Origin: Candidatus Kaiserbacteria bacterium
GTDB taxonomy: Bacteria; Patescibacteriota; Minisyncoccia; Phycocordibacterales; UBA918
NCBI GenBank assembly: GCA_016699245.1
Contig: CP064968.1
Coordinates: forward strand, 283,386 to 347,385
Length of the DNA: 64,000 nucleotides
Reading direction: 5' to 3'
Shown here: positions 35,464 through 63,959 of the stretch, one piece after another
Layout: every line of letters begins with the position of its first letter
Position numbering within the stretch: position 1 is the first letter of the stretch
Notes under the pieces: model-generated
Told to the model about the DNA's origin: nothing
The model's database searches: none
Seen by the model: only the letters and a program-made list of their open reading frames with translations
Position numbers and translations under genes: made by a program

Positions 35464-36015
35464 TTAGTCGAGTAGTGCTTCAGCAGAGATTTTGAGATCT
35501 TCCGGTGCAAGCACTCCGCGGGTGTGTACGGTTATGACGCCATCTGTAGCATAAAAGACGGTTTCGGGCATTGCATATCCCCCTACCCCTTTGTAGAAAG
35601 TGTCGGCAGGGTCAACAAGGAAAATAATCTTAGAATCATCAATGCTATATGTCGCTAGATATGCACGGATGACCGCTTTATCCTCCATGCGATTAATAGC
35701 AAGAATCGTAAGTGCGTCACCCTTTGACTCTTTCAGAGTACTGAGTGCTTCGAGTTCTTCTTTAGAAAACGGCATCCATGTGGCCCAAGAATTGATGATA
35801 AGTGGTTTCCCTCTAAAATCAGAAAGTTTCACTGGATTACCGTCTAAGTCTGTGTATGACTGTTCCACTGGAGGTTCGATTGTTTTAAGGTCGTTATGAA
35901 GACCTGAAAATGGACTGAGTGGAGAGCGCAGTGCAAAGAGTACTGCTCCGCACATGAGCACTATTCCAATAAGTAGACCGAGACCAATCTTTTGTTTTAC
36001 TGTGAGGGTAATCAT
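35464..36015 (-). CDS. TlpA/redoxin-like thioredoxin-fold protein lacking the CxxC active site.
   Basis: N-terminal transmembrane helix. FRGKPLIINSWATWMPFSKEEL aligns to the redoxin motif LVNFWASWCGPC, with Cys replaced by M-P-F-S. Confidence 0.5.
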   Translation of the reverse strand: MITLTVKQKIGLGLLIGIVLMCGAVLFALRSPLSPFSGLHNDLKTIEPPVEQSYTDLDGNPVKLSDFRGKPLIINSWATWMPFSKEELEALSTLKESKGDALTILAINRMEDKAVIRAYLATYSIDDSKIIFLVDPADTFYKGVGGYAMPETVFYATDGVITVHTRGVLAPEDLKISAEALLD

Positions 36016-36017
36016 TC

Positions 36018-36503
36018 TTAGCCCTTCATGAAAAGTTCAAAGTTTTCAGGTGTCTCACCTTCTGCTGCGGGAATAAGATTCAATTCTACAGGGCGACCCT
36101 CGAAGGTTGCTTTAATCGTTGCATCTTTATGTGCGTCGAAGGTCACCATAAAACGTTGTGGTGTGACGGTCTGTGCGCACGTTTCAGCGTGATTCACAAC
36201 TTTGAAATTTACTATCACGGTTTCGGGCGATGATTCTTGAATAACAACATCTGAGTACTCGAGAAGGTCACAGGGGGTTGGCATGAGAATCTCCCCGGCG
36301 AGTGTATGTGTGGGTGCTATAAAGAAATGCTTTGCGTCGATGCGGGTAATATTGGCATACGGTCCTTCTCCTGGAATCTGTGTGCCTGGAGTTACCGAAG
36401 GCGCCTCAGCGATCTCACTTTTCTTAAGGTATGCAAAAACAAACATGCCAACGACCACGAGTGCAAGGATAATAAACGCTACGGTCATATGTCGGTGTTC
36501 CAT
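36018..36503 (-). CDS. Hypothetical membrane-anchored protein, 161 aa.
   Basis: N-terminal transmembrane helix followed by a Cys-containing soluble domain. Ends 3 nt before the next gene. Confidence 0.45.
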   Translation of the reverse strand: MEHRHMTVAFIILALVVVGMFVFAYLKKSEIAEAPSVTPGTQIPGEGPYANITRIDAKHFFIAPTHTLAGEILMPTPCDLLEYSDVVIQESSPETVIVNFKVVNHAETCAQTVTPQRFMVTFDAHKDATIKATFEGRPVELNLIPAAEGETPENFELFMKG

Positions 36504-36567
36504 AATACAAAATGCTTAGCGACTAATTTCGTTTATTATACCACTAAGTATGGGGTGTGTGTACATT

Positions 36568-37863
36568 TTATTCAACAGCAGCACTCGTAGTTACTGTTTC
36601 TTCTATCGTCACCTCGTAGTCTTGGTTTTGCTTGGTGGCATGGCTAATATAGAGCGTAATCGCAACAAAAATAGTAATAAGTGCAACTATCGAAATAAAG
36701 AACCACTTATAACTAAGCATAAAACGCCATATAGTAGTAATGACATCAAGTGACTCCTCTGCAGTAGTAAGTCGTGTACGCAGATCGAGGACGCCATCAC
36801 GAATTGGAGCTGCAACTGCATGATACGTATGAAGTGTTCGTGGAGTTTTATTTGAGAGACTTTCTTTCTTCGCTTCTTCGCGTTCTTTCTTGTCGACATC
36901 CACACCTGCAAGCATGAGCATGCGTCGCACATACGCCTTTACCATGAGCGTAATGAGTGTGATAAAAATGCCAAGAATAGTAAGTACGATAAGTGTCCAC
37001 TTAATAGGTATCACCCAAAAGTATGCCACGGCTGTCACATTTTTGATTTCATTTTCACCGTAGCCAAGAGTCGCTATAGCTTTATACCGTCCAATATCAG
37101 TCATTTTAAACTCACTTTTCCATGAGAAATTAAAATCACGAATAGTGCCGGGGAGTACATTGCCGTAGTGTGTCTGGTAATTCACAGGAATAGTACCTCG
37201 TTCAGTACCCCACATGTTGGTAATCTGAATATCTCCTTTTGGTTGAAGATGAACGTTGCCCTTGTTTTCAAAGCGAAGTGAAAACGTGGCGTCAGGCACA
37301 TCAAGAAACGCATCGAGAGCACGAAACTCACGGATAGTTGCAGCCTCATGCATATCTCCTTCTACCCGCATAAAAAGAAGTGACGTCACCACTTGTGAGG
37401 TGAGCACCGCAAGTTCATTGGTGTTTTTAGGTGGCTCCGTAGAAATTTGAATCGCAGCGTAGTGTCCGCCCGGTGAAGCATTCTCGGGCACCTCAACAAA
37501 AAATGACACGTCGGCAGTTTGTTCCGGGGGAATAACGTATGGACCTGAAGGGAGTGTAATCCACTCAGCAAGTGTAGCATTATCCCCACCAGCTTCACCA
37601 AGAGGTATGAATCTCCCCTGTCCTGCTTCACCCACGGCTTTAAAATTGAATAACTCAGCATACACCGTAAGCGGATAGGGATTTCCATTTACTACTTTCA
37701 CACTACTTTGCCAAATATCACCTGGGTTTATCGAAAGTTGAAAGAGCGGCGGTGTCACACTCATCACCTGTTTTTCTTGCGCATACGAAAACGATACACA
37801 GAGACAAAACAGAACAAGTGACAGGAAGACATACACACTATTTTTGTGAATTCGAGTCATCAT
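36568..37863 (-). CDS. Signal peptide, beta-rich ectodomain and C-terminal transmembrane anchor surface protein. Paralog family A. The architecture resembles CscA/DUF916-type anchors.
   Basis: Signal peptide ending at SYAQE with a VTPPLF motif. Transmembrane helix WTLIVLTILGIFITLITLMV, then a charged tail and a second C-terminal transmembrane helix. Confidence 0.5.
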   Translation of the reverse strand: MMTRIHKNSVYVFLSLVLFCLCVSFSYAQEKQVMSVTPPLFQLSINPGDIWQSSVKVVNGNPYPLTVYAELFNFKAVGEAGQGRFIPLGEAGGDNATLAEWITLPSGPYVIPPEQTADVSFFVEVPENASPGGHYAAIQISTEPPKNTNELAVLTSQVVTSLLFMRVEGDMHEAATIREFRALDAFLDVPDATFSLRFENKGNVHLQPKGDIQITNMWGTERGTIPVNYQTHYGNVLPGTIRDFNFSWKSEFKMTDIGRYKAIATLGYGENEIKNVTAVAYFWVIPIKWTLIVLTILGIFITLITLMVKAYVRRMLMLAGVDVDKKEREEAKKESLSNKTPRTLHTYHAVAAPIRDGVLDLRTRLTTAEESLDVITTIWRFMLSYKWFFISIVALITIFVAITLYISHATKQNQDYEVTIEETVTTSAAVE

Positions 37864-38921
37864 GGTGTTTTAGACGGATGTGTGAGATCGACATCATGAT
37901 GCTTTGGTTCACTTTGTGAGTCACGCACATGGACCGTAAGTCGCTCACTGTGGTCATCTAAATCGTCTTCACCAAAATATTTTTTGTGGACATACCAGGC
38001 AAGTACGGCTACAAGCAGGATACATCCAGCCAAAAATATCAAAAGTAGTTTAAGTGGGAAGACATAGAAAAAGGAAGTATCCTGAATCGATGCACGCTGT
38101 GTAGTTCCATATTCTACAGAGAGAAATGCCTTATACTTTCCGAATAATCCTTTCGTAGGCACTGCTCCCGTAAACGTATACTCACCCCCCGGACTAATGC
38201 TTACATTTTCATTATTTACAGGCATGGTACCCACTTCTTTTCCAGTGCTATCATAGAGAATGATTTCACCCTGTGGGACTAATACTTCATCTCCTGGGTT
38301 CGTAAAAGTAAACACAGCGGCTTGGTTGTCAACCTTGGTCACAAAGCGACTCACAATAAATTTTGAGAGTTTTAGAAACTCATTTGTATCATCAGCAATC
38401 GTGAGCGTCACAACAATGCCCGGTGCTTGGCCATTCACTACCTGTTTTTCAGCTTCATCGCGATTACCACCGTTACCAAAACCGATGAACGCATGATACG
38501 TACCGGGAACAGGATTGGGCGTTACACGAACGGTGAGTTTCACTGTCTTCGCTGCGCCAGATTGTAAATCAATACCGAGACGACTGATTTCAAGCCACGA
38601 AGCAAGCGAAGTAGTACGGTCGCTTTCTACGGGCGCAAGAAACTTATCAATCGTACCTCCCTCCTGTAGTGAGATATTGTTGACTGATGGATATATAGTG
38701 ACGGGTGCTGTACCTGTGTTGGTGATAGTAATTTCTTTTTCGACAATATCACGCGCCTCTGACTTGAGGTCGATGACCATAGGACTCACCGTGTACGATG
38801 TAGTTGCGTGTGCGTTTGCACCTCCGCACAAAAAGAGCATGGGTAATAAAAGTCGGAATATGAGTGCTTTAAAAGATTGGAACTGAAACATAGCGAATTC
38901 TTGATTCATATACTCCTGCAT
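37860..38921 (-). CDS. Same architecture as the protein at 36568..37863. Paralog family A.
   Basis: The start probably lies at a Met downstream of the giant-gene stop (38909 or 38891). Has a YTVSPMV motif, a C-terminal transmembrane helix LLLIFLAGCILLVAVLAWYV and an acidic/His tail. 4-nt overlap with the downstream gene. Confidence 0.5.
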   Translation of the reverse strand: MQEYMNQEFAMFQFQSFKALIFRLLLPMLFLCGGANAHATTSYTVSPMVIDLKSEARDIVEKEITITNTGTAPVTIYPSVNNISLQEGGTIDKFLAPVESDRTTSLASWLEISRLGIDLQSGAAKTVKLTVRVTPNPVPGTYHAFIGFGNGGNRDEAEKQVVNGQAPGIVVTLTIADDTNEFLKLSKFIVSRFVTKVDNQAAVFTFTNPGDEVLVPQGEIILYDSTGKEVGTMPVNNENVSISPGGEYTFTGAVPTKGLFGKYKAFLSVEYGTTQRASIQDTSFFYVFPLKLLLIFLAGCILLVAVLAWYVHKKYFGEDDLDDHSERLTVHVRDSQSEPKHHDVDLTHPSKTP

Positions 38922-41900
38922 CTTGTAATCCTCGAATCAAAATGCGGTATATCACATCGGTGGTCTCACCCGCGACTGGCTGTGAACTATATGATACCTC
39001 ATCAAGCGTTGAAGTGCTCACGCGAGCGAATGTATCAGGTGCCAAAAAGCGTGCTGTAGAAACTCCGTCTAGCGTATCATCACTTGTGTGATATCCAAAA
39101 CAGCTTGCAGCACTCACACTACAACCTGTAGTCCACGCTGCAGGTACTGCATTGGTGCTCGTAAGCGGCTTCATAGTAGCGCCCATTCCACTCGTGAGTT
39201 CGCTATCCATAACCATGAATATCTGATACCCCTCAGTGCCATTCGTATCAATAGTGAGTCTGTGTGCACCTTCTTTGATACCATCAGGAACAAGTTTACC
39301 AAATGGTAGTGTCGTGGGAGTGGTATTGATATCAAGTGTTATTCCTCCTTCTACAACGGTAGATGAAGCAATACCTTCCATGGTGAAGTCGAGACTGGCA
39401 CCCTCGGTCACGAGTGAGGGGTATGATTCACCTATATTTGTGGTCACCGGAATACCCTGCACTAAGTCAAAAAGCCTGAAGTAGTAGACGCGATTAACGC
39501 GTGGACCTGCTGACTTAAGTGTAAATTCGTATTCTGCAGCAGTATTACGGTTGTGGCGGAACCCAGTAAGTGGCAATGGCGAGAGGTTGTGAGTACCACA
39601 ACCATCTCCCACACTACTCACACACGAATCTGCATCAGAAAGTGTCTTGGTAGTGATCTTCACGTTATCTGCCCCATTACTGTCGTCATAGCACCATGTA
39701 GAGGAAGCGGTACAGGTCGATGATGCAGTGAGATCGAATGCAGTACTGAAATTAGGGGATTCAGAGTACTGCAGTTTAAAACGCACGTCGTCACGTGAGA
39801 TATTCTCTGTTTCCTTTACGGTCACACGAAGTTTCGTCGTGCTCCCGTTTACAAAGTCGATAGGTGCGGTATTTTCACTTGCAAGCGCGCTTACGGGAGT
39901 TTCGTTCAGAACATCATCATACCAACGCCAATTTTGTGTCTTTGGGGTAAAACTTGCAGTGCGAATTTGTGGGTAATTTGCATAGTTACCCATCAATGTC
40001 CCATTAGATTCCACGAGTCTGAAGCAATAGAATGTTTCAGCACTTGCACCATTTTGTTCAATAAGCCAATCATACTCGATATCATCACCCTCAGGGACTG
40101 CATACGCATTCACAGCACTATCATTCATCTCTTCAAAGGTACCCGCAACATCTGAAACACTCAGTACCGTTGTTGTTGGACTCCCCACGAGTTGTGTACC
40201 GTCCGCTAGATTGGTTGCATCAGCACCACGCCATATAGTACTTGAACTCATGTCGCCGAGTGTATTCCAATTGGTTTCATCTATTGCACTACATGTGGTA
40301 AGCATTTGTCCATATTGAAGTTTCCACGATTTAGTCTCAGCAGGAAATGTTGCATTTATGGCACGCACGGACATACGTATGCGAATTGTTTCAGCTTCTC
40401 CGAGAGGCTCATCTAATCCAGTAAGTGCTTCATTTTCGCCAAGCGCACTATCCCCTATAGGCCACGCATCGAGCGGCAGTAGCGCATTGTTGTCAACATA
40501 CAATCGATAATAATTTTGACGATAGGTAAGTCCGGCTGTTGGCCACTCGACTATAATCGTACGATACGCGAGTTGTGCACCCGTGTCAGAGCGCCACAAT
40601 TCATAGTGTGTCGATGAGGCGATGGTTGCTCCTGCTATCGGTCGAGGAAAGGATCCGTCTGTTCCCGCGACACGTGAATTTACAAAAATAGATGCATTAG
40701 TGATGTCAGTGAGTGTCTTACCTATAGGAACACTGAGGGTAAATGGTTCTGCACCGTTTAACGAATCCCCATTTGAGTAGGTCACATCCATGGCTCCCGC
40801 AGACGTCTGCATATTTTCGATAATCCATGCCACAGAGGTCTGATTTCCTGGTGTTGTCGCTCCTGTTTGCAGGAAGTATGAGACGTAGCCAATGCTTGAA
40901 AGCCACACTTCATGGCCAAATTCGTCAATTCCTGCAAGACCGCCCCCCACACGCTTCTGTGCGTGAAGCATAGTACGTGCGAGACTGTTAACTGCTGTAA
41001 TTGATTCTGTTTCTGTTGTACCCGCAGCACTATATGTATGCTCACTTCGTTGTATTGCCCAATTTAAACCAGTAAATTCTACAACTGCGTAACTCAACAC
41101 CACAGCATCACTACCCGCTTCACCACGAGTAAATGCTGCTTGATCACTTGCTGAAAGCCACTCAGATGTAGATTGCATAGTATTGTAATCAGCAGTTCCC
41201 GTATCTGGACTACCAACTCCGGTAATAAACACGACGACATCAGTATCATTACCAATATCGCTGATGACTGATGTGGTTGCTGTGAGGCTCGTTGTGGTAT
41301 ATGCAATAGTACCCTGACTTCGTACAATCATTTCATTATCTGCCCCTATAGAACCGATATATTCAACTATTTCCCACGACACTCTCGTGGTTGTCGCCGC
41401 TGCAGTTGCGGGACGCTGGATGGTAAACGATGTTGTAATATTTGATGGATCTAAAATATATGCTGTTACATCGTCTGCATTTTGATTACCACCCGCGGAA
41501 CTATCCCCAGCACCGGTATGGTGTGAATTCGTGATACGGACGAACGCACTTGTTGATGCAGATGGTGCAATGTAGTCAACACCGGCTACCAGAGTGATTG
41601 CATTTGTAGAAAAATTAACTGTTCCTCTTTGAATTTCAAAATCTCGTTCAGGAGAAGTAGTGAGTTCAGGATATATAGGATATGCATTGAGTGGTGTTCC
41701 TCCATTTGAGACACGGAAGCAATAGGTAATATCGTATCCCGCATCAACCGTGGGCTTCATAGAGAACTCAGCCTCAATAAATTGAATTGGGGAAAGAGTC
41801 GTTGTTGCAACTGTTGAGAGTAATTCCTTAACGGCGCTATTTGGGCTCACAAAATTTGTATTTTCATCAGTGACTGCACCTTCCGCAGATCCAAAAATAT

Positions 41901-44900
41901 TCGTGGTATCGCTTTCATCAGTAAGATTTGACGTGGTTGCCATATTCCATGCACCACCCAAAGCACCCACATCAGTCCAAGAGCCAACGTCACTGCATGT
42001 TGTAATCTTTGTTCCGTATTCTACGCGTAGCGCTGTGTCACCAGAAGTAACCGCGCCTTCATTTGAAACCTGTAGTCGAAGACGAACAGGTGACGTGAGT
42101 GCAATGTTTGCCGCAGGAGAATCCTCATTTCCTCCCGTGAACGATGTTGCGGTGGTCTCATCTCCATTGTCGTTTCTCCAGTGGTAGTGTGTCTGTGTGA
42201 GTACTGCTCCGAGCAGTGTCGTCTCACCACTCAGGTCACGAGTGATGGTTGGACTTACTGAGCCAACTGAGACGGTAAGATTCATAGATGGATTCTCCAT
42301 CACAATATTGATTGTCTCACCATTTTGCGCCGACGAGGTCACATCAAGCACTGGATACAGACAGAGCGTCGAGGTCGTACTTACGGTGACAGACCCTGTG
42401 AAGGTGGATGTTCCATTGAGAGATGAAAAACCATCGGTGTCAGTGGAGCCAAACTGGTCGTCGCCCACAGTATAGGATTCTCCAGCACAATCGTATGGTG
42501 CAGTAACATCAAGATCATACCTGAGTTCAATGTTATCGAGACCTGTCTCAGCATTCACGGTTCCATTTTCTGTAATAGTAATACTCGTAACGTCACGAGA
42601 GTCGACATTCTCTGTAATCACAAAACCTGTCCCAATATATTGGGTTGTCGTGGGAATAGTGAAATTGACCATCTGCGATGAGGTGGCAACGGTTACAAGT
42701 ATGTCAGCGGAAATGTTGGCTCGAGGATATACGCGATATTCAGAGAGTGGACTTCCCTGATCACTGACCCTAAAGCAGTATGTGTTCCCTTCAATAGCAG
42801 TTGTTGACGCAACAATGGAATATTCGAATTCAACAAACTCTGTAGTGGTGAGGACAATTGGACCTGTCTCCGACGATGTGGTTTTGACTGCGTAGTTCGG
42901 TGAGTGGAAAAGCGCATTTTCATCACTCACGGCTCCGTTTCCCTCTACAGTTATGTTTGTGGTACTATCCCCGTCATTTAAATTCCCTGATACTGACATA
43001 TCAAAGTCTCCACCAATAGCCCCCACATCTACCCAGCCTGTAGCAGCGTCACAGGTACTCGGGTTTGGAGCGTACTCAAGCCGGTACTGTATAGCAGGTG
43101 TCGAACTACTTCCTTCATTTGATACCTCAACACGCAGACGTGTTGTGGACCCCTGTCGCATTGTGGTGAGTGATGTGTCTTCGACACCGGCCGTTTTTGA
43201 TGTTGCATTTACCTCATCACCATCATCATTTCTCCAGTGATAATGCATAAGTGTCGGAGCGTCATTGTAAATTGTCGTCGTTCCAGGAATATCTTGAGAA
43301 GATACGGGGCCAGCCGTACCTCCCGTAACAAAAATATCAGATCCTGGGTTTTCAATAGATATTTCGATAGTAGAATCTCCATCAGCAGTATCCAGCACAT
43401 CAAAAACTACGTACACACAGAGGGTCCCCGTATCACTCACGGAGACAGTACTACCCGTAAAAGAAGACACTCCATCGGCGCCTGAGAAGCCATTCACATC
43501 TGTTGAACCAAAGCGACTCTCGGAACCATCATATGATTCGCTTGTACAGGTGTAGGGAGACGAGGTGTCCATTTCATAATACAATTTCACATTCGCAATA
43601 TCAGTTGATGCATCGACACTTCCGCTTTCCGTAAGGGTAATCCCTGTCACATTATACGAGTTTAAAACATCCGTATTGTATATAACAAACGTACCTCCAA
43701 TGTACACATTACTTGTACTTGCATTGACTGTTGCAACCTGATTATCAAGCGTCGGAATCGTAGGACTCGGGAGATCAATGAGTGTCGCCCCGTATACATC
43801 ATCAGTGACATCACCAAACCAAGTTGCATAAATCCTATCGCTACTTACTTGATTAAGGTCCATACCGTAGATACTCGTAGGGCTCGTGTTTACTGGGCCT
43901 TGTATAAATCCCCAACTCGCCATATCATCCGTTGACTTTCTCCAGAGTACACTCGCTGTATTAGCACTGTTTGCTATACCCTGCGCACTGTACGCAACAT
44001 ACACGTCATCATTGCTCGCATCGAGTGCGATGGCGACGTTCGTAAGTCCTGATACTGTCGATGCGACTACGTCAGTAGTAGCCGTCCAAACACCGCCCGA
44101 GTATTTGGCAGTGCGAATTTGGTCGTCACTGCCGGGTGTGGCATTTCGCGCAATGTATGCAAGATACACATCCCCTGTCGTTGGACTCACGGTAACTGCC
44201 ATACCTATGTCGTACGTTGTGTTATCAGGAGCATCAGAATCAATCGTCGTCGACGCAGCGTCCCACGTATTGGTGCCACTATCATATACTTTACTTTCGA
44301 TATTTTCTGCAGATGCGCCTATGTCACGATGTATCGCTATGATGTCGCCACCAGAGAGTGGTGCAAGTATTGCATAGTTGTTTGTACGTCCAAACGGATC
44401 TGTTCCTGCCTCATCCCAGCTTGCAGCGAGATTACAATTTGCAGTGCACATGAGGACAACAGAATCTGAAGCATCAATACTACTCGCGTACAGCGTTCCG
44501 TCTGTGGCTTTTGTTATTGAAATGGAGTTTGATCCAGCAGTAAGTGTCCCCCCTTGTGCAGGTGGACCTATGAATACACTCACGGGAGATGTACCCATAA
44601 GAAGAGTGTCCCCAGCAGTATCGAGACGGTTATACCAGACATCATCTGGATTCTCATCGAATGTTGCAATATGAATGTAGGTACCCGTGTCCCCTGGCGT
44701 CCACTGGTCGTACCATACCGTTACCATGGCACAATCAGTCTGTGCATCCACAGTGGTCGTTGCACTCCATGTCGTTCCGCCATCGGTAGTTTTTCTGTAC
44801 ACACAGTAGCCAGGAGCGTCGCGGAAGAATTTATACCCTGTCTGATCGTCGGTAAAAACAGTTTGTGATCCTGAAATATGGTGTGACGTCCCTGTTATAA

Positions 44901-52626: not shown

Positions 52627-52685
52627 AGACCGAGAAGGCTTTCGTTATTCTTAACTTCAATATCAAAGACTCAGAAAATAAGTCT

Positions 52686-53660: not shown

Positions 53661-53743
53661 TTTTTCTGTGACGAAGTCACAGAAAAAAGGAAAAACCCTT
53701 CTCGTGGTGGGAGATAGGGTTTTCCTTATTCTTGTACTGTTGC

Positions 53744-54880: not shown

Positions 54881-55175
54881 AGGCTTTTCGTTGTATTAAT
54901 CAATACATTGACTCTAATAATGAGTAGTGCGTAGTTGGTGCTCTTTCCAACATAAAATTGCACTCCGCAAACACGAAAGTCTCCACCTCTCTAATGTTCA
55001 CTTTCAATGTATTACGCCTACCCAACAATGCCCGGCTGTGAGCATTTGCAGTAGAGACGTATTACTACCTCCTACAAGCGATATACACTCCTCACATGTG
55101 TGGACTGCATACCTCAAGTAGGCGTAACTTCATTGTAGCGTATGAGAAAATAATTTGCGTGAGTTATACACAAGA

Positions 55176-55350
55176 TTGAAATAGAGAATAGAAAATATGG
55201 AATATGGAATAGGACAACACTTCGTGTTGATTTTATATTCCATATTTTCTATCTTCTATTCTCTATTTTCTATTCCCTATCTTCTATCTTCTATTCCCTA
55301 TTTTCTATTTTCTATTCTCTATCTTCTATCTTCTATTCTCTATTCACTAT
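55176..55350. repeat. Palindromic microsatellite element E1. Arrays of the 8-mer AGAA(A/T)ATA / TTCTAT(C/T)T in inverted orientation around a GC core caacacttcgtgttg.
   Basis: Lies directly downstream of the stop of gene 55352..56479. The two arms are (agaataga/aatatgga)n and (ttctatct/ttctattc)n. Confidence 0.8.
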
Positions 55351-55351
55351 T

Positions 55352-56485: not shown

Positions 56486-57409
56486 TTACTTTCTTCTTCG
56501 TGTCCGAATGAATATAAGGAATGGTACGAAGAGTATAAAGAGCACTGGGATGATTACTGAAAGTTGATGGGGGAGTGAAAGACCAAGGAATCCGAATCCC
56601 GCAGTTTGTAAAGTACCATATGGCAATACACTAAGATTGACCTCACCACTGAGCTTTACATCTTCTTCATTCAAAATTTCAAAACGAGCGAGGTAACTCC
56701 CTGCTGGAAGTTTCGTGGGGATTTCAGCAAAAATAGATTCAGTTGCAAATGGATCTACAGTATCAATACTTCCCTTTTTATGAGCTTCTTCAAGAAGCAC
56801 ATTACCTGTCTTATCGTAAATTCTAAACACAACATCAGACGGTGCAATCTCTACGTTACCTATGTTCTCAATAAGCATTTCGAATCGAATTTTTCCCGGG
56901 AAATATAGCCAGCCAACTTTGTGTCCTTCGTTTAAGTCAGATACACCAATTTTACGAACTTTGAAGTCCTTAATTTTTTTATCAATAACAGTGAGGTCGA
57001 CATCGAGTTGAGCACCAAGAGAAATACTCACCGCACCTCCAGCAACCTGATCATCAGGGGCACCAGTTTTGATGCGAATATTCCCTTTATATTGTTTAAA
57101 ATCAGCATCCTTTGGAACAGTCACTTTAACGGTCATTGGAACTTTTTGAACACCTTGTGGCAAGAGAAATTCGTTACCTTCATTGATAACTATCCATCCA
57201 TTTATTTCAGGAACATCAACATTCACTGTTGCTTTGAGGGCGGTGGTAGGATCACTACGGACAAGATAAATAGTCTGTTCGTATACAGAATTACGGGTGA
57301 GACTTACGTTCGTTACATATGGTGGCGTTACACCAAAACCTGCATACGTAGTATGCACAAAAACAAAAAGTACCGCTACTGAAAAAATGATTGAGCGAAA
57401 CAGTGCCAT
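56486..57409 (-). CDS. Signal peptide, beta-rich domain and C-terminal transmembrane anchor surface protein. Paralog family A, third member.
   Basis: Signal peptide ending TTYAG, a GVTPPYV motif, and a C-terminal transmembrane helix IIPVLFILFVPFLIFI followed by RTRRRK. Confidence 0.5.
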   Translation of the reverse strand: MALFRSIIFSVAVLFVFVHTTYAGFGVTPPYVTNVSLTRNSVYEQTIYLVRSDPTTALKATVNVDVPEINGWIVINEGNEFLLPQGVQKVPMTVKVTVPKDADFKQYKGNIRIKTGAPDDQVAGGAVSISLGAQLDVDLTVIDKKIKDFKVRKIGVSDLNEGHKVGWLYFPGKIRFEMLIENIGNVEIAPSDVVFRIYDKTGNVLLEEAHKKGSIDTVDPFATESIFAEIPTKLPAGSYLARFEILNEEDVKLSGEVNLSVLPYGTLQTAGFGFLGLSLPHQLSVIIPVLFILFVPFLIFIRTRRRK

Positions 57410-57520: not shown

Positions 57521-59389
57521 CTACCACTGTAATGGTTCACCGACGAGTGCTGTAAATGTGTTCTGACCGGTATATGCCCCTGCAAAAGTAATAGTTCCTG
57601 GAACGCGTATACCCCAATATGCATCACGTTGCGCTGGAGTTGAAGTTGATGTCGACTTAGGTATGTTAATTTCAATCTCCTTTGGAGTCGTTGAGGAAAG
57701 TGTATTTCCAAGGCCTTCAGCGGTAGTATACGCTACACTCGAAGTAGCAAACACTTGCTCGTACTCTGGAATAGTTGCGGTGAGTGATGGAATACAAGGT
57801 GACGCATTTGTGTAGGTACTACACATCGACGATCCTGTAACATCCTTGTCGAGACCAACATTACCTGTTGCTACCATAGTTGTCGTTGCTGTAAGGACTT
57901 CATTTTTCTGTCCCGGTTCGAGTGCTCCGTATGGAATTTGAATTGTAGTGAGATTAAAGGCGAGAAGAGGTAATACATCAACTCCTACAGTACTTTCAGC
58001 ATATGCTCCTACAGCAGTATCATCATCTATACCTTGCACTTGAGCACGCCAGTCGTCTGTGGTGTAGAAGGACGCCGTTGTACTTCCTGTTGGGTCAGCT
58101 ATGTACCACATCGGGAATGTACATTCATAAAGAATATCTGAGTCAGATGAACCGGAACAGGTTGTTGATGAGGCGGTACACACAAGATTCCATGAAGTCG
58201 GTGCAATGTCACTTGGATAACAGTCATTGGGATCGAAGATTGAAGATGATGTACACGTTGTAGAACTATTTCCTGTAGGTGTTCGGTAAATTGATAGGTT
58301 GTAATCAGTAATTTCATCGTCATCTAGACCACCAAATGCATCACAACTATTATTATCTGAGGCTACAAATGATAGAGTAAATCCAGTTGTCTCACTTGAT
58401 TCATTAATCAAAACAATGTCATTTGTGATTGGTTGGGTGAGAGAAATACTAGTTCCACTCACTGTTGGAGCAACGTTGTTTACCGTAAGCGTATTCACTT
58501 GACCTTGTTCACCTCCCGATGCTTCAAATCCATGATTGTCAATGATGTACGGGTATACTCCAAAGTCAGTGTCCTGGGTTGGAATAATTATGGTATACGA
58601 TGCTGAAGCATCATCATCTACATATATGGTTGACGTTGCAAGTGTTACAGCAAGTGGACCATTACATGAGTTTGTTGTTGTTGAAAAGCCAGCCACAGAA
58701 CAAACGGTGAGAAATACTTGGTCGAATTGAGCACCACCAGAACTGTCGTTATCTGTTGAGGTACTATAGAAAGTTACCGCTTGACCAGGGATGCCAGTTA
58801 CAGGATCAGAGAATGCGGTGAAAGTTGGACGATGATTGACTTCAAATGGCGATGAGTTCGTAGCGTTTACACCTTGAGAATATGAGACGCTACATCGTGG
58901 GTTACCAGCGTTTCCGTCACAAATCCAGGAATACCATGCATTTGATTCAGCCCAGCCATCAAGAGTCGTTGTTGCTGCTACTGCTAGTGAACCACTCGTT
59001 GTGGTGCCTGACACTGCCCATTGGACACCAGAGGTACATCGCGGTGCACCGCCTGACGTAGATGTTGGCATAGCGCTGGTATCACAGATGAGAAGCCAGT
59101 AGTCTTCAGAGTTTGAGTCGGTGCCGATTGCTTTCCAAGAAATTACGTCGCCAGCGTTAGTTGGGTTTGTAATGGAGGATTCTATTATTTCAGTAGTTGA
59201 TGCCGTCCATGCAGGAGGGGTATTTACAACAATAACCGTCGTGCTCGCAGTACTTTGCGCATCTGCTTGCTTTATCTGGCTTTCACCAAGATTAAAAATG
59301 AATACTATTGCAAAAACTACTACACCAATGAATGTGGTATACACAGTAATTTTACCTGCCGTACGTAAATGATCTGTGTTATATGACAT
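57521..59389 (-). CDS. Large secreted Thr/Ser-rich beta-domain protein, 622 aa, N-terminally anchored.
   Basis: N-terminal transmembrane helix ITVYTTFIGVVVFAIVFIF followed by repetitive T/S-rich Ig-like regions. No catalytic motif. Confidence 0.45.
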   Translation of the reverse strand: MSYNTDHLRTAGKITVYTTFIGVVVFAIVFIFNLGESQIKQADAQSTASTTVIVVNTPPAWTASTTEIIESSITNPTNAGDVISWKAIGTDSNSEDYWLLICDTSAMPTSTSGGAPRCTSGVQWAVSGTTTSGSLAVAATTTLDGWAESNAWYSWICDGNAGNPRCSVSYSQGVNATNSSPFEVNHRPTFTAFSDPVTGIPGQAVTFYSTSTDNDSSGGAQFDQVFLTVCSVAGFSTTTNSCNGPLAVTLATSTIYVDDDASASYTIIIPTQDTDFGVYPYIIDNHGFEASGGEQGQVNTLTVNNVAPTVSGTSISLTQPITNDIVLINESSETTGFTLSFVASDNNSCDAFGGLDDDEITDYNLSIYRTPTGNSSTTCTSSSIFDPNDCYPSDIAPTSWNLVCTASSTTCSGSSDSDILYECTFPMWYIADPTGSTTASFYTTDDWRAQVQGIDDDTAVGAYAESTVGVDVLPLLAFNLTTIQIPYGALEPGQKNEVLTATTTMVATGNVGLDKDVTGSSMCSTYTNASPCIPSLTATIPEYEQVFATSSVAYTTAEGLGNTLSSTTPKEIEINIPKSTSTSTPAQRDAYWGIRVPGTITFAGAYTGQNTFTALVGEPLQW

Positions 59390-59461: not shown

Positions 59462-60670
59462 TTATTCATAACGAATAGCATCGAGTGGATTAAGTAAGGA
59501 CGCACGACGTGCGGGAAAAATTCCTGTTAAATACCCCACTGAACCCGAGAATAAAGCAATGAATACAAGGAATCCTATAGGAAACTGGAAGAGATCAACA
59601 CTCTTCCCTCCGAACTGACTCGCTGCAACATTCAACATGATATTCACAACAAATCCCAAGGTTACCCCCATGAGTATCCCACTTACTCCACCAAGAAAAC
59701 CCACAATGATTGACTCGGACACAAACAAAAACTTAATATCGCGTGGTGAAGCGCCTATAGTACGCATGATACCAATCTCTTTGGTTCGCTCCAAAAGAGT
59801 CACTGTCATGGTATTAAACATACCAATAGCAGATACAAGAAGTGCAATACCACCAAACGTCGCCAAAACAACTTGAATTCCTTGGAAAATCTTGGATGCT
59901 TGCTCTACTGTCTTTGAAAGCGCAGTCACGCGATATCCTTCTTCAATAAGTGATTTTTCAACGTCTGCCAAAAATTCGTTCGATACAACCTTCACTTGTG
60001 CTCTGTCGTACTCCTCTATTCCTACATAGTTACGGAGTTCAGGAAGCATCATGAGTACATTAAGCACACCTTCTTCTTTGGTAATTCCTTTTACACGGTA
60101 TTTTTTCTCAATATTGATTTCCGTAACTAGGTCTGTGCCATCATCTGTAGGAACAAGGAGTCTAAAGGACACCTCCTGTCCAATAAAAGATTCAGCATCT
60201 TCAACACCGAAGAGTTTAAGAACGGCTGGTGAGAGCATGACTTCGCCCGTATTAGCAATATCTTCCTCAACAAAGGTGTCTCCGAAGGATGCAGTAATAC
60301 CAGCATATCGTAGATATGCTGGTTCAGCGCCCTGGATAAAGATATTTCCCGTAAGACCCTTGTAGGTAATCAGAGCGGGAAAACGGGCTAACGGCGCTGC
60401 ATCTTCAATATTTACATTTTTTTCAAAGCCTTGAATCACTTCGTCTGTAATTGAAAGGTTACGTGCACCAGTAGCAGACACACCAAGTGAAAGAAGGCTG
60501 TCTCCAAAGACGATTTGTTCAAGAATGATTTGCTGAAGTCCAAAACCAAGACCCACCAAAATCACCACAGCACCTGTACCAACACCCATACCAAGGATAG
60601 TCAGCCAGGTACGCATCGGATTCGTTTTAAACATGCGCGTTGAAAGACGCGCGAGATCCGCTACTTGCAT
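59462..60670 (-). CDS. ABC transporter permease, FtsX-like (MacB/LolCE family).
   Basis: 402 aa. N-terminal transmembrane helix, a large extracytoplasmic domain and three C-terminal transmembrane helices (TVTLLERTKEIGIMRTIGAS...). Confidence 0.8.
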   Translation of the reverse strand: MQVADLARLSTRMFKTNPMRTWLTILGMGVGTGAVVILVGLGFGLQQIILEQIVFGDSLLSLGVSATGARNLSITDEVIQGFEKNVNIEDAAPLARFPALITYKGLTGNIFIQGAEPAYLRYAGITASFGDTFVEEDIANTGEVMLSPAVLKLFGVEDAESFIGQEVSFRLLVPTDDGTDLVTEINIEKKYRVKGITKEEGVLNVLMMLPELRNYVGIEEYDRAQVKVVSNEFLADVEKSLIEEGYRVTALSKTVEQASKIFQGIQVVLATFGGIALLVSAIGMFNTMTVTLLERTKEIGIMRTIGASPRDIKFLFVSESIIVGFLGGVSGILMGVTLGFVVNIMLNVAASQFGGKSVDLFQFPIGFLVFIALFSGSVGYLTGIFPARRASLLNPLDAIRYE

Positions 60671-60683
60671 ATACTACATATAG

Positions 60684-60880: not shown

Positions 60881-60882
60881 TA

Positions 60883-62205
60883 TTACGTCTTATAACTCAC
60901 ATCCACACCAAGAGCGATGAGTTTTTCCATATACCGTGCTAAGTCATCACTTGTCTTTTCATCGAGATGGAGCCCGCCATTTTTATATGTAGCCATGAGT
61001 TGTGCATGAAACTCTTTTTCGCCATGAATACCCGATAATCGGTCTGCAATCATTGTCGTAAGATTGGCTTCAGTGACTTTTGTAAGCGGAACACTGTGGT
61101 GTTGAAGAAGATACTCACGAACACGTTCAGCAAACTTATGCTGAGAGAAAAAGGCCGCATCAGAATCATTGTCATTGCGAAAACGCTTGATATCAGTTGA
61201 CTGTTTAACAATCGATACCGACACATTAGCCATATGTTCTGCGATTTTTCTGTCGACACCCACTCCCCCTTCATCATATTTTTTCACGAGTGCATCGACA
61301 AATAGTTTTTTATGTATCTTACCCATGATGAGTAAGTGGATTGCTTTTTCAATACGCGAAAGCTGACTAAAGGTATACTCTTGTGTAAGAAAGTTGGTGA
61401 GACTCTTCACACGTAATGTATCAACCGAGTCATACGGGAAAAGACGTGCGAGTTCCTCTAACTCAGTAACGATGGTCTCCCCTTCTCGTACCGGCTTTAT
61501 TTGTTTGCGCTGTGGATTGACCACTTCTCGCACAATAAAACCATCTTTAAGGTAATAGACTCGATGTGCATAAGAAAGGTGTGCGGCGTTGTGTGACACC
61601 ATGATAATGGTGCGCATATCAAACGTATTGATCTCATCAATCTTATCCATAACCTGTTGAGTAGAAATACTGTCAAGGTTACCGGTAGGCTCGTCAGCAA
61701 GAAGTATCTGTGGGTCGTTAACCATTGAACGAGCTACCGAAACACGCTGCTGTTGACCTCCTGAGAGCATAGAGGGGATCTTGTGAGATACCGCACCCAC
61801 ACCAAAACGGTCAAGGAGCATCTGCGCACGACGCTCACGAGTTGCCTTGTTCGCATCACAAAAAATCATGGGGAGCGCTACGTTGTCGAGTACGGAGAGA
61901 GAGCCAATGAGGTTGAAAGACTGGAAAATAATACCCATCACATACCGTTGAAAATACACACGCTCCTGAGGTGGATATGCATAAATATCATCGCCACGAA
62001 TAAGAAGTGTCCCATCACCCGGTGGCAAAGAGCCCTGTATGGCATACATGAGTGTCGACTTACCACATCCAGAAGGACCGAAGAGAATAATGTATTCCCC
62101 TTCATAGATGTCGGTATTGACGTGCTGGAGCGCTTTAAACTCATTCGACTTCCCTTTGTTGTAGGTAATCGTGAGGTCACGGCATGTGATAAGTGGTTTT
62201 GCCAT
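60883..62205 (-). CDS. ABC transporter ATP-binding protein (MacB/LolD-like) with a C-terminal extension of about 210 aa of unknown function.
   Basis: Walker A GPSGCGKST, signature LSGGQQQRVSVARSM, Walker B LLADEPTGNLD and H-loop MVSHN. Residues about 230-440 show no recognisable motif. Confidence 0.85.
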   Translation of the reverse strand: MAKPLITCRDLTITYNKGKSNEFKALQHVNTDIYEGEYIILFGPSGCGKSTLMYAIQGSLPPGDGTLLIRGDDIYAYPPQERVYFQRYVMGIIFQSFNLIGSLSVLDNVALPMIFCDANKATRERRAQMLLDRFGVGAVSHKIPSMLSGGQQQRVSVARSMVNDPQILLADEPTGNLDSISTQQVMDKIDEINTFDMRTIIMVSHNAAHLSYAHRVYYLKDGFIVREVVNPQRKQIKPVREGETIVTELEELARLFPYDSVDTLRVKSLTNFLTQEYTFSQLSRIEKAIHLLIMGKIHKKLFVDALVKKYDEGGVGVDRKIAEHMANVSVSIVKQSTDIKRFRNDNDSDAAFFSQHKFAERVREYLLQHHSVPLTKVTEANLTTMIADRLSGIHGEKEFHAQLMATYKNGGLHLDEKTSDDLARYMEKLIALGVDVSYKT

Positions 62206-62212
62206 AAGCTAT

Positions 62213-62400
62213 GAAATAGAAAATATGGAATAGAAAATGTATGAGATAGAAAATAGAAGATAGAAAATAGAAGATAGAACAACGCTTCGCGTTGTTTCAA
62301 GATTTTCAATTTTTACTATTCTATATTCCATATTTTCTATTTTCTATTCTATATTATCTATCTTCTATCTTCTATTTTCTATTCCATATCTTCTATCTTC
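62213..62400. repeat. Palindromic microsatellite element E3. Same 8-mer inverted arrays around a GC core gaacaacgcttcgcgttgtttc.
   Basis: Fills the gap between the stop of gene 62400..63959 and the ABC ATPase start (62205). The core is similar to that of E1. Confidence 0.8.
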
Positions 62401-63959
62401 TAACCATTTATATTTTTAACCCAACCGAAGGTGCTCTCGAAGTTTTCAATAATAATGTCGATGATATTCTTTTCTTGAATAGGCGTAAAAAGCACAAAGT
62501 TTTCTGACTTCACACTATTCTTAGATTCGTCTGCACAATCAAGCCAAAACTGATACACCGTTGCTGGTGCAAAATCGACAATCACCTCTACATGCTGCAT
62601 AGCGAAACCAGTGTCTTTTGAATCAATAACCGTAGGTTCAATACCACCGGTAATACCTTCACGATACGAGAGAGCACAATGGGCTGGTTCATCCGTAATC
62701 CATTCTATAATTGTTTGAATACGTGACTCCCCGCCCGGGAAGAGTGTGGATTCGTTCGTCACATTACTGATGATTGGTGGTGCTGTGTCCTTTACCGTAA
62801 TAAAAGTAATTGGATTGCTCTTTACACGGTCGCCACCTGCGTTTTCTGCAATAACAAAAGCAACATACCGTGTACCTAATGTAAGGTCAGAAATACGCAT
62901 TTGATGATTGGTGGCGAGGGTAGGACGACCTATTGAGTTTTGGGTACCCTTCGTCAAGTCTTGATACTCGACGAGTGCTTTTGCTGGAACTGTAGTGTCC
63001 CACGCGAGTGTTGCGGAGTTTTCCTCCACTTTCAAAATACGAAGATTTTTTATATCAGGGCGTGATGCCTTTGTCTTGAATGTATAATCACGGCTCTTCC
63101 CCTCAATACCGTATGTGTCTTTCGAACGCACTTGGAAATGATACTCGGTATATGGATCAAGACCAATCACGCGTACCTCGTGGTCAGTGGTATTACCACC
63201 CGTACTTGCTTGAGAGAAGGCATATTGACCTTCGGTATATGTATCTGATGGAGAAAAAAGAACTTCAGAACTAGATTCACGGTCGGTAGTCCATTTTACG
63301 AGTGCACTTGTGGTTTCTACAATCACCGTCGGAGGACCCACAATAGTGAGATCTTCGGTAATACCTTGAATTGCTTTTACCGTTTCATTGAGAATTTCTT
63401 GGAGTTTTTCTGGCGAATTGATTTGTTTAATTTGTTCGAGCACTTCTTGCACGGTCTGTGATTCAGATTGTGACTGTGATTGTGATTCAGACTGAGACTG
63501 GCTTTCACTCTGCACTGTTTGGCTCGTCTCAGTCTGCGTTTCTTTACCCTCCCCTGCTTCAGCGCCAGATTGTGGGTCACCGTCAGTGACTACTTTATAG
63601 TTTGCAGAAATGCCCTGATTCCCATCAGCATCTGAAGAAACAACGCGAAAATAGTAGGTACGACCAGGTTCAAGGGTATTCAGCGTTACAGAATGCTCAG
63701 TACGAATCGCTTCAGGAATACGTACGGTACCGTAATCTTCTTGAAGTCCATAATTAATAGTTGAATCAGCATCTTCATCAGTCTGCCAGGTAATCGTCAC
63801 TGTATCTTCCGCAACGTTGGTGATTTGCACATTCGTGATATCAGGCGGTACCGTGTCTGCAGCATGCACAAGAGGAGAGACCTGTGCAAAGTACACAATA
63901 CAAAAAAGCGTTACTACCGCTGTTGAAAGCGCTCGAATCATGTACAGTAAGTGTACCAC
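62400..63959 (-). CDS. Secreted protein with 3-4 fibronectin type III-like domains and an SQSESQ low-complexity linker.
   Basis: Signal peptide. The FN3 pattern is PPDITNVQITNVAEDTVTITWQTDEDADSTINYG...LEPGRTYYFRVVSSDADGN, repeated (KNLRILKVEENSATLAWDT...). Confidence 0.6.
   Translation of the reverse strand: MVHLLYMIRALSTAVVTLFCIVYFAQVSPLVHAADTVPPDITNVQITNVAEDTVTITWQTDEDADSTINYGLQEDYGTVRIPEAIRTEHSVTLNTLEPGRTYYFRVVSSDADGNQGISANYKVVTDGDPQSGAEAGEGKETQTETSQTVQSESQSQSESQSQSQSESQTVQEVLEQIKQINSPEKLQEILNETVKAIQGITEDLTIVGPPTVIVETTSALVKWTTDRESSSEVLFSPSDTYTEGQYAFSQASTGGNTTDHEVRVIGLDPYTEYHFQVRSKDTYGIEGKSRDYTFKTKASRPDIKNLRILKVEENSATLAWDTTVPAKALVEYQDLTKGTQNSIGRPTLATNHQMRISDLTLGTRYVAFVIAENAGGDRVKSNPITFITVKDTAPPIISNVTNESTLFPGGESRIQTIIEWITDEPAHCALSYREGITGGIEPTVIDSKDTGFAMQHVEVIVDFAPATVYQFWLDCADESKNSVKSENFVLFTPIQEKNIIDIIIENFESTFGWVKNING

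Follow-up and report, generated by a model that had tools for sequence, protein, structure and literature searches.

A conserved candidate surface-display locus, with two putative anchor/ligand pairs, in a Candidatus Kaiserbacteria bacterium

How are secreted proteins held at the cell surface in the Candidate Phyla Radiation (CPR, or Patescibacteria)? These bacteria represent a substantial part of bacterial diversity and are mostly found attached to other cells; to our knowledge, little is known of their surface machinery apart from the type IV pili of Saccharibacteria. The question is raised by a run of genes for secreted and membrane-anchored proteins at positions 35464..63959 of a 64,000-nucleotide (nt) stretch of DNA from a Candidatus Kaiserbacteria bacterium (GenBank assembly GCA_016699245.1, contig CP064968.1, positions 283,386 to 347,385 of the forward strand), which is referred to here as the window. 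An initial sequence-only reading had proposed that this block is a dedicated cell-surface or attachment system. The analysis described here supports a dedicated, conserved cell-surface locus, whose gene order is kept in many relatives, and it argues that the block is probably a conserved envelope locus of Kaiserbacteria-like CPR, in which proteins would be displayed at the surface non-covalently by two anchor/ligand pairs. In the first pair, membrane proteins resembling the WxLIP/DUF916 proteins of Bacilli would hold proteins that end in a shared beta-sandwich domain; in the second, membrane-anchored cohesin-like proteins would hold dockerin proteins.

An open reading frame listing with translation gives 17 credible genes in the block, named below by their lower coordinate. 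As the sequence-only reading had stated, all are on the minus strand, but the single-strand run itself is nothing special: it reaches to ~17865, past the block and through uvrA/B/C, tgt, FKBP, PGA_cap and AI-2E transporter genes, so strand alone cannot define the block. The expectation that almost all products have a signal peptide or membrane anchor holds for 16 of the 17, which have an N-terminal signal or anchor and/or a C-terminal transmembrane (TM) segment by hydrophobicity scan and AlphaFold2 (AF2) model; the exception is the cytoplasmic ABC ATPase. The predicted giant protein of 2465 amino acids (aa) is present, 4-nt ATGA overlaps between genes are found at two junctions (37860-37863 and 51550-51553), and the block contains no metabolic gene, the terminal "Redoxin" protein lacking a CxxC motif. 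Pfam and NCBIfam scans of the window proteins were combined with all-against-all blastp among them. Nothing above E 0.01 was obtained from Pfam for 57521, 56486, 53744, 51550, 49142, 46486, 37860, 36568 and 36018. The blastp comparison revealed four relationships: 36568 with 37860; the N-terminal domains of three cohesin-like proteins with each other; two dockerins with each other; and the C-terminus of the giant with the C-terminal half of a 378-aa protein.

The last of these relationships points to the candidate ligand of the first putative pair. The 378-aa secreted protein (53744..54880, minus strand) consists of a signal peptide, likely cleaved after AEA, an immunoglobulin (Ig)-like domain (dom1, ~40-185) and a beta-sandwich domain (dom2, ~186-378). 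Of its 881 detectable homologues, the best 120 share 63-100% identity with it and all lack Pfam domains; among them is an identical hypothetical protein from a Candidatus Kaiserbacteria metagenome-assembled genome. A profile search extends the family to 2056 representatives of 50%-identity clusters, and 104 diverse members yielded no consistent Pfam match; members with a source name are Patescibacteria, including Peregrinibacteria. An AF2 model made with the 104-sequence alignment (predicted local distance difference test score, pLDDT, 95) contains an N-terminal helix that is the signal peptide, dom1, and a larger dom2. Columns that are at least 90% conserved number 28 of 193 in dom2 versus 5 of 146 in dom1, and this concentration of conservation in dom2 fits a docking module. 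Within the window the dom2 profile finds the C-terminus of the giant (E 3.7e-26) and nothing else; by blastp the last ~185 residues of the giant are 34-36% identical to the C-terminal half of the 378-aa protein. The same domain also ends a 495-aa protein and a 996-aa protein in two more distant loci (L012 and L015, respectively). The giant (38869..46266, minus strand) starts with a signal/anchor, followed by two sialidase-like BNR modules (47-426 and 450-832) that are 67% identical (BNR_2 E 3e-9), two ~345-aa modules (843-1188 and 1198-1540), jelly-roll-like modules, and the C-terminal dom2 (2291-2465). PDB sequence searches with the 378-aa, 431-aa, 581-aa and giant proteins and with family profiles returned noise only. 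Exact look-ups of the 378-aa and FN3 (fibronectin type III) proteins gave no record, and their context was drawn from homologues.

Two side observations concern the 378-aa family. Its signal-peptide region (window 54767..54880; compared across L017-L095) equals the mature protein in its degree of conservation, among orthologues and paralogues alike, with the pattern A..AL.LW..G...F..AEAA. Sec signals are not usually so conserved, and a dedicated step of processing or recognition is hinted at. This signal was considered as a feature specific to loci with an ABC transporter; that idea was ruled out, since the region is equally conserved in paralogues that have no ABC transporter. In addition, a 3077-aa protein of a Candidatus Peregrinibacteria locus (L014, 8001..17234) contains at least 10 tandem copies of dom1, which indicates that dom1 is also a repeat module in giant proteins of another CPR lineage.

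The candidate anchors for dom2 are three proteins with a signal peptide, two beta domains and a C-terminal TM segment. The 431-aa protein (36568..37863, minus strand) and the 353-aa protein (37860..38921, minus strand) are encoded by genes that overlap by 4 nt, the latter also overlapping the 3' end of the giant gene; the 307-aa protein (56486..57409, minus strand) is encoded elsewhere in the block. That these are three paralogues, as first read from the sequence, is clear for two of them (blastp E 1e-16 between 36568 and 37860, and E 3.6e-33 for 37860 against the 431-aa family profile), while 56486 is a remote member (hmmsearch E 2.8e-4 against the core profile of the 431-aa family; hhalign E 6e-5, probability 65%, against the 353-aa family and 1.3e-3 against the 431-aa family). 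The motifs VTPP..., VP.DA..G.Y, I+DF+ and ENxGNV are common to 56486 and the other two. The hydrophobicity scan places the C-terminal TM at 283-301 in 56486 and at 290-308 in both 37860 and 36568, with an extra TM at 388-406 in 36568. The cytoplasmic tail and second TM of the 431-aa protein are highly conserved, suggesting a link to a cytoplasmic partner; weak PspC-type matches are obtained for its TM/juxtamembrane segment (~273-340), to NF007973 at E 5e-4 and, in one homologue, to PF22571. A total of 1242 homologues of the 431-aa protein (54-100% identity) lack Pfam annotation. When 29 members were scanned singly, PF06030 (DUF916, now WxLIP_PGBD) was the top family in 21, with a best E of 3.2e-6. 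In the window, PF06030 matches 36568 over nearly its whole profile at E 0.021 (15.3 bits, cut-off 27.3) and 37860 at E 0.12; 56486 has no match. The DUF916/DUF3324 search recommended at the outset has thus given a weakly but consistently positive answer for the first family and no match for the second, although a second beta domain similar in size to DUF3324 is present. Against a single Bacillus cereus WxLIP, the family aligns colinearly but weakly by hhalign (E 0.05-0.09). We refer to these proteins as WxLIP-like.

The pairing of dom2 proteins with WxLIP-like anchors is argued from comparative genomics. A metagenome scan with a 19-sequence alignment gave 80 loci at 45-84% identity, and the 34 of at least 8 kb were sorted into two types. 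Related long contigs keep the window gene order, so that the synteny comparison called for initially comes out positive. The type 1 order is [622-like], FN3, ABC ATPase, MacB, 622, 307-aa WxLIP-like, dockerin, 378, cohesin, cohesin, 219, cohesin plus dockerin, 596; in 19 loci, the 378-family gene has the 307-aa type of WxLIP-like gene 1.4-2.0 kb upstream. The type 2 cassette is paralogous and consists of a 378-paralogue, a WxLIP-like gene, one further gene, a dockerin protein gene and a cohesin protein gene, with no ABC transporter; here, the WxLIP-like gene follows the dom2 gene after 8-247 nt in 13 of 13 loci. Overall, 32 of the 34 loci have a WxLIP-like gene near the dom2 gene within the sequence available, and the other two end before the upstream region. 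Both types can occur in one genome (L027 with L063, L039 with L053), and the cassette is also found in distant lineages.

Other loci rearrange the same parts. The pair of WxLIP-like genes that follows the giant in the window also follows a dom2 protein in L012 and L062. In L012 the 495-aa dom2-ending protein directly precedes the WxLIP-like pair, and 160-aa and CxxC-less redoxin-fold genes come next; L062 joins a giant-type module (a dom2 protein plus two WxLIP-like genes) to a type 2 cassette. In L013 a WxLIP-like gene comes straight after a 378-family gene, and next in line are a dockerin protein that starts with dom1, a cohesin protein, and a giant of 5507 aa. Finally, a WxLIP-like ectodomain (E 7e-75) is naturally fused to dom1 plus dom2 in a 666-aa protein of L015 (P0238), which is flanked by the 996-aa dom2 protein, another WxLIP-like gene, and another dom1-dom2 gene. 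Cohesin and dockerin genes co-occur with the cassette in both locus types. Taken together, the recurring unit is a dom2 protein, a WxLIP-like anchor, a dockerin protein and a cohesin anchor; the ABC, FN3, 622, 219 and 596 genes are constant additions in type 1. The sequence-only reading had noted neither this principle, a C-terminal domain common to the small and giant proteins with a WxLIP-like anchor for each, nor the leader RNA described below.

The second half of this unit had been recognized in the sequence-only reading as three cohesin-like and two dockerin-bearing proteins. The 358-aa protein (51550..52626, minus strand) has a signal peptide, a cohesin-like domain and a C-terminal TM (318-336). 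The 581-aa protein (49808..51553, minus strand) has a signal peptide, a cohesin-like domain, Ig-like domains (Big_13 E 7.6e-13), a TM at 474-492, and a cytoplasmic coiled-coil tail. The N-terminally anchored 246-aa protein (48398..49138, minus strand) combines a cohesin-like domain with a C-terminal dockerin and also shows EF-hand matches. The three cohesin-like N-domains are mutually similar (blastp E 1e-7 to 1e-14; 51550 with 49808, E 3e-14). The window copies score under the Pfam cut-off or are missed (48398, 17.8 bits; 51550, E 0.1; 49808, none), and the assignment holds at the family level: PF00963 matches 7 of 10 window copies and orthologues, with a best E of 3.2e-8, and the L001 orthologue of 49808 has a Cohesin match. 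The secreted 375-aa protein (55352..56479, minus strand) carries a Cys-rich DUF4215 repeat, two Ig-like domains (Big_6 E 9e-12), and a C-terminal dockerin that matches Dockerin_1 (PF00404) above the cut-off (33.3 versus 22.9 bits, 2 stretches). The dockerin of 48398 is under it at 18.1 bits; nevertheless, all 7 dockerin-type proteins from the window and its orthologues match Dockerin_1 (best E 5.8e-9) with EF-hand co-matches, and the orthologues of 48398 support both of its domains. This protein is a possible adaptor.

How might these parts work together? In the arrangement that we favour, all would be exported by Sec. The WxLIP/DUF916-like type I membrane proteins (56486, 37860 and 36568) would hold dom2 proteins at the membrane or wall surface, with docking likely to occur by beta-strand complementation, as has been predicted for WxLIP and WxL. 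The 378-aa protein would probably be an abundant structural subunit whose dom1 faces outwards; it is a candidate major surface subunit, an abundance suggested by its conservation, its gene layout and transcript-like short contigs described below. The giant would use the same socket through its dom2, so that its jelly-roll modules and sialidase-like propellers would reach outwards and act as an adhesin or a binding arm. In the second pair, the membrane-anchored cohesin-like proteins 51550 and 49808 would hold the dockerin protein 55352 and the adaptor 48398 in a calcium-dependent manner. Such an assembly might serve for episymbiont attachment, as the sequence-only reading had suggested. Two published findings provide leads rather than tests: a dockerin-domain protein is among the essential envelope proteins in Saccharibacteria transposon sequencing (PMC10633639), and Ig-like and thioredoxin-like secreted proteins are among the most highly expressed genes in a Paceibacteria metatranscriptome (PMC10936435).

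Several results weigh against this arrangement. The search for a WxL domain, also recommended initially, failed: no PF13731 match was found in 104 members of the 378-aa family at E<=1. In a direct comparison, a Pfam-confirmed WxL cluster of B. cereus pBc10987 (BCE_A0044-46, AE017195) was used as a reference, 29 WxL homologues were collected, and dom2 was aligned to a 20-sequence WxL alignment. The hhalign result is colinear over all conserved motifs (FG; TNAxxG[YF]xV versus DxxGxGxGWxV; C-terminal DYTTTLRYVATP versus YxSxLTYSIVTGP), with a score of 20.1 that 0 of 60 column shuffles reach, a P of 0.032, and a probability of 1.6%, but an unrelated background pair, dom1 versus cohesin, reaches the same P-value. 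A dom2 profile hmmsearch of Bacillus WxL loci was negative, and a contig scan with the Bacillus WxLIP found near-identical Bacillus loci only. On the anchor side, none of 29 members gave a PF11797 (DUF3324) match at E<=1, and the window's own PF06030 match is under the cut-off. The AF2 model gives generic Ig-like structural matches only, the paralogous cassettes have no neighbouring ABC transporter, and neighbouring housekeeping genes are also syntenic in a relative, so that part of the conserved order may be general collinearity.

If the 378-aa protein is a major subunit, one may ask how its gene is expressed. Directly upstream lies a structured 5' leader RNA (54881..55113, minus strand) of ~200-220 nt, whose helices H1-H6 span 54902..55104. 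In a 16-sequence alignment, 27 of the 49 pairs in the six helices show compensatory changes, and 92% of cells are paired; sliding the partners lowers this to 31-45%, and in 500 shuffles the observed values were never attained. A 24-sequence alignment of diverse matches has compensatory changes in 42 of 44 pairs, although this alignment was fitted to the model and so favours the structure. The covariance model finds the leader in 30 of 69 sources, always directly 5' of the type 1 gene and never at a paralogue. Rfam (4227 covariance models) gives no gathering-score match in the window save one tRNA, and none at E<=1 in 54850..55160. The leader is thus a candidate new cis-regulatory RNA. Almost no cis-regulatory RNAs are known to us in CPR, where it would represent a candidate new class.

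At the other end of the 378-aa gene is an intrinsic-terminator-like hairpin with a U-run (53681..53732, minus strand; fold -20.6 kcal/mol, z -4.6). Upstream, directly after the stop of the dockerin gene 55352, a purine-rich 7-nt repeat array (TRF period 7, 14.6 copies; AGAAAAT/AGAAGAT-type units on the coding strand) is followed by its complement to form a long hairpin (55165..55351, minus strand; -43.3 kcal/mol, z -5.85), which is probably a terminator or insulator. Furthermore, 25 independent metagenome contigs of 1.3-1.4 kb (L021-L047 and others) carry the 378-family gene only, with a 5' extension of median 219 nt and a 3' extension of median 27 nt past the stop. These look like assembled monocistronic transcripts, which would imply high expression. 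The leader covariation, the terminator hairpin and the uniform contig ends together suggest that the 378-aa gene is transcribed as a unit by itself, with a structured leader RNA in front and a terminator of its own behind. The 1.1-kb gap that follows this gene (52627..53743) contains three copies of the 25-nt repeat CCAAGCCCCTATATTTTCTGAGGCC, at 53312, 53381 and 53622, where none is expected by chance; relatives have ~200-330 nt at this position, so that the gap looks like an insertion in the window. A 112-aa ORF here (52686..53024) has no counterpart in relatives.

Such features also lend themselves to a different explanation, in which copies of the 378-aa protein join, for instance through donor-strand exchange, to form a pilus-like fibre, a sheath or an S-layer-like coat, with the WxLIP-like proteins as PapD-like chaperones or assembly platforms, the MacB-type transporter as the source of energy, and the giant as a tip or inserted adhesin. 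The extreme conservation and apparent single-gene transcripts of the 378-aa gene would fit a polymer, as would the composition of the mature protein, an acidic chain with a pI of 4.1 that lacks Cys and is rich in Thr, Ser and Gly. The two-Ig architecture of the WxLIP-like proteins and their weak DUF1573/ASH-type matches recall PapD-like folds, and the ABC pair is always present in type 1 loci. However, AF2 predicts a monomer in which both domains are completely folded (pLDDT 97-98, N-terminal strand included) and no open groove is apparent; there is no usher, sortase or SipW-like gene in the window; and the ABC transporter is absent from the paralogous cassettes. Polymerization of this kind is, in our judgement, unlikely, although it is the strongest competitor to anchored display. 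A specific candidate, the TLP-1b "CryoSeek" fibril, was rejected as the identity of the 378-aa protein; the similarity is at the fold level only, and the best sequence relatives of the fibril are from Flavobacteriales.

A more sceptical explanation is that there is no integrated system at all, and that independent envelope genes stay together only because gene order is generally collinear among small CPR genomes. Neighbouring housekeeping genes do lie within the minus-strand run and the synteny, and the modules can be found apart: the WxLIP-like pair with the redoxin-fold gene in L012, cassettes lacking the ABC genes in L013 and L015, and unrelated genes between ATPase and permease in L001 and L003. 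Yet the four-part cassette recurs in two paralogous locus types within one genome and in distant lineages, the dom2 gene comes immediately before the WxLIP-like gene in every type 2 locus (13/13), a natural fusion links the WxLIP-like ectodomain to dom1-dom2, and two gene junctions overlap by 4 nt. Given the repeated cassette and the fusion, collinearity by itself is quite improbable, and display by two anchor/ligand pairs remains the better account of the arrangement.

What, then, is the role of the ABC transporter? The FtsX-like permease and ABC ATPase noted in the sequence-only reading were both recovered. The 440-aa ATPase (60883..62205, minus strand) matches ABC_tran (PF00005) at E 6.5e-31 and has a ~205-aa helical C-terminal extension (residues 236-440) with the look of a pair of ~75-aa repeats; the extension is conserved in 14 related loci and has no family match. 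The permease (59462..60670, minus strand), with TM1, a large extracytoplasmic domain and 3 further TM segments, matches MacB_PCD (PF12704, E 5e-16) and FtsX (PF02687, E 1.3e-16). The combination of PF12704, PF02687 and PF00005 with this TM pattern, taken from the hydrophobicity scan, is that of a MacB-type, or type VII, ABC transporter. Both genes are present in 17 of 17 testable type 1 loci (at least 6 kb upstream), whose 378-family proteins are 46-76% identical to that of the window. The two genes are adjacent or overlapping in L054 and L082 and separated by 212 nt in the window. As side observations, L001 has Fic/RhuM between them (2644..3615), and L003 has a trypsin-like protease, a second permease-like gene and a sugar transferase (1107..3988).

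Could this pair instead be a housekeeping FtsEX cell-division or LolCDE-like system that merely neighbours surface genes? Its best NCBIfam matches might suggest so, the ATPase resembling DarD, LolD and FtsE (166-169 bits for the latter two) and the permease LolCE (78 bits), and no substrate can be named for the pair. However, every score is far under its cut-off: 165.9 versus 264.9 for FtsE, 169.2 versus 307.8 for LolD, 43.5 versus 225 for FtsX_Gpos, 41.5 versus 250 for FtsX_actino, and 78.5 versus 362 for LolCE; against NCBIfam MacB the permease also falls far short. The permease has a MacB-type periplasmic domain, the conserved 205-aa ATPase extension is not seen in FtsE or LolD, the position is fixed in all 17 testable type 1 loci, and release of lipoproteins to an outer membrane makes no sense in a monoderm, which has none. 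A housekeeping identity is thus very improbable, and the pair reads by its domains as a generic type VII ABC transporter, recognizable neither as FtsEX nor as LolCDE. Established modes of the MacB-type family are the extraction of signal-anchored precursors and mechanotransmission. Within the proposed display system, the type 1 transporter would most likely be involved in maturation or extraction of a locus product; that it might energize assembly or release, as the sequence-only reading had put it, is a conjecture from synteny, and the paralogous cassettes do without a neighbouring ABC transporter.

That the locus encodes a cellulosome-like polysaccharide-degrading complex, as its cohesin and dockerin modules and the sialidase-like BNR modules of the giant might suggest, can hardly be credited, because no glycoside hydrolase, carbohydrate-binding module (CBM) or other catalytic domain is found on any dockerin protein, the cohesin proteins are anchored in the membrane themselves and contain one cohesin each, and there is no multi-cohesin scaffoldin.

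The remaining genes complete the inventory. The first type 1 gene visible in the window encodes the N-terminally anchored 519-aa FN3 protein (62400..63959, minus strand), in which the FN3 domains noted earlier are confirmed (Pfam fn3 E 1.6e-22, 3 stretches; at least three domains) and which has a same-position orthologue in 12 metagenomic loci. The 622-aa protein (57521..59389, minus strand) is N-terminally anchored, Thr/Ser-rich, and contains 14 Cys; its position is kept in type 1 loci, and it has no Pfam or NCBIfam match. Its C-terminus was considered as a third dom2, but the similarity is not significant. Some type 1 loci have a second 622-like copy upstream of the FN3 gene, and the block therefore probably reaches beyond the window end. 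The 596-aa protein (46486..48276, minus strand) is N-terminally anchored, with an acidic low-complexity region and then a beta-propeller-like domain, and its position is kept in 14 loci. The beta-propeller proteins noted in the sequence-only reading are partly supported: the giant has a weak BNR_2 match, and for 46486 the TIGR04275 repeat scores 46.5 bits against a cut-off of 85, along with a weak TolB match. The 219-aa protein (49142..49801, minus strand), N-terminally anchored and coiled-coil-like, keeps its position in 15 loci and has no Pfam/NCBIfam family match.

At the far end of the block, the 161-aa N-terminally anchored protein (36018..36503, minus strand), with no family match and a same-position orthologue in L012, travels with the WxLIP-like pair. 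The 183-aa membrane-anchored protein (35464..36015, minus strand) has a thioredoxin fold of the TlpA/ResA type (Redoxin E 8.6e-12) with WATWMPFS in place of WxxWCxxC; the L012 orthologue (11870..12430) has WASWIPFS, and with the CxxC lost, the protein is probably redox-inactive. Its gene accompanies those of the 161-aa and paired WxLIP-like proteins. A further observation lies outside the block, where a secreted protein of 892 aa (25620..28298), containing Big_13, Big_7 and TSP3 repeats, adjoins a histidine kinase (24235..25623), and L012 has an orthologue of the 892-aa protein at a similar position.

A bolder synthesis would make this locus the principal outer scaffold of Paceibacteria-type CPR, in which the 378-aa protein forms the coat or fibre seen on ultra-small bacteria, two orthogonal anchor systems (WxLIP-like/dom2 and cohesin/dockerin) hold it, giant adhesins plugged into the same sockets through dom2 contact hosts, the MacB-type transporter drives extraction or assembly, and a leader RNA of a new class controls the dosage of this major subunit. 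We consider this synthesis as a whole possible but doubtful. Even the narrower display system provides a testable, widely conserved parts list: a family without Pfam domains that comprises >2000 clusters at 50% identity, the membrane anchors that go with it, an adhesin-like giant ending in the shared domain, a pair of cohesin and dockerin modules, and a linked MacB-type transporter. It would also extend the WxL/WxLIP design principle, so far seen almost only in Bacilli, to a distant phylum. As read from the sequence, what appears to be new is putative WxL-type plus cohesin-dockerin display with a linked MacB-type transporter in CPR, where such machinery is undescribed.

How does this locus compare to known systems? 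The closest architectural parallel is the WxL (Csc) surface-protein clusters of Bacilli (Siezen 2006, PMC1534035; Hassan & Williamson, PMC9772566, PMC10599100). These always contain a small WxL protein, a large protein with a C-terminal WxL domain, and a WxLIP (DUF916-DUF3324-TM) that is predicted to insert a strand into the WxL domain (PMC9772566, PMC10599100). Similarly, the locus has one small and one large secreted protein that share a C-terminal ~190-aa beta domain, the large one with adhesin-like N-terminal modules, and adjacent genes for proteins with a signal peptide, two Ig-like domains and a C-terminal TM, with weak PF06030 matches in the first Ig domain. In both cases, the products are secreted and the cluster is defined by adjacency. 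In addition, the two most conserved dom2 strands (TNAxxG[YF]xV and the C-terminal LxYxATP) are colinear with the two WxL-motif strands of the B. cereus family. If dom2 is put in place of WxL, the rule for recognizing a WxL cluster (at least 1 WxLIP and at least 2 proteins sharing a C-terminal domain within a few genes) describes by analogy the giant with two anchors and the small protein with one anchor in the window, and likewise L012, L013, L015, L062 and 32 of the 34 metagenomic loci. The differences are also clear. The locus has no PF13731 or PF11797 match; dom2 has [YF]xV and YxA where the WxL motifs stand; dom1 is an additional Ig domain at the N-terminus of the small protein; LPXTG proteins and sortases are absent here; the cassette adds cohesin/dockerin partners, and type 1 loci add the MacB ABC transporter and the leader RNA; sequence conservation is far higher than is usual for WxL proteins; and the locus belongs to a CPR bacterium, while Firmicutes account for 91% of known WxL proteins. 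No paper was found in the literature searched that links WxL, DUF916 or the 378-aa family to CPR. The likeness to WxL clusters is best described as architectural, together with a weak homology of the anchors.

The other parts have their own parallels. Like non-cellulosomal cohesin-dockerin complexes and anchoring scaffoldins, the locus places PF00963 and type I dockerin (PF00404) domains on separate secreted proteins encoded side by side, the dockerins have EF-hand-like calcium loops, and the cohesin proteins are cell-bound; unlike them, anchoring would be by a C-terminal TM helix rather than by SLH domains or sortase. Cellulosome scaffoldins differ further in that each locus protein has a single cohesin, and the dockerin proteins carry Ig-like and Cys-rich modules rather than enzymes; neither dockerin-bearing enzymes nor a multi-cohesin scaffoldin with a CBM was found among the locus proteins. 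With the MacB/LolCDE/FtsEX family, the transporter shares a four-TM permease with a large extracytoplasmic domain between TM1 and TM2 (MacB_PCD plus FtsX) and a separate ATPase of LolD/FtsE/MacB-like sequence, but it lies under every curated family cut-off, its ATPase has a unique 205-aa C-terminal extension, and the locus, in a monoderm organism, has no membrane-fusion adaptor or TolC. Finally, the BslA/YweA coat proteins, Gram-positive pilins, and donor-strand-exchange fibres (TasA; the TLP-1 fibrils, PDB 9ikk) resemble the 378-aa protein at the fold level only, with 7-15% identity. The 378-aa protein has no isopeptide or sortase motif, and its predicted model shows no sign of an incomplete fold that would need a donor strand. 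Among these systems, it is the WxL cluster, with its small and large proteins sharing one C-terminal domain beside a two-domain membrane anchor, that the locus resembles in architecture.

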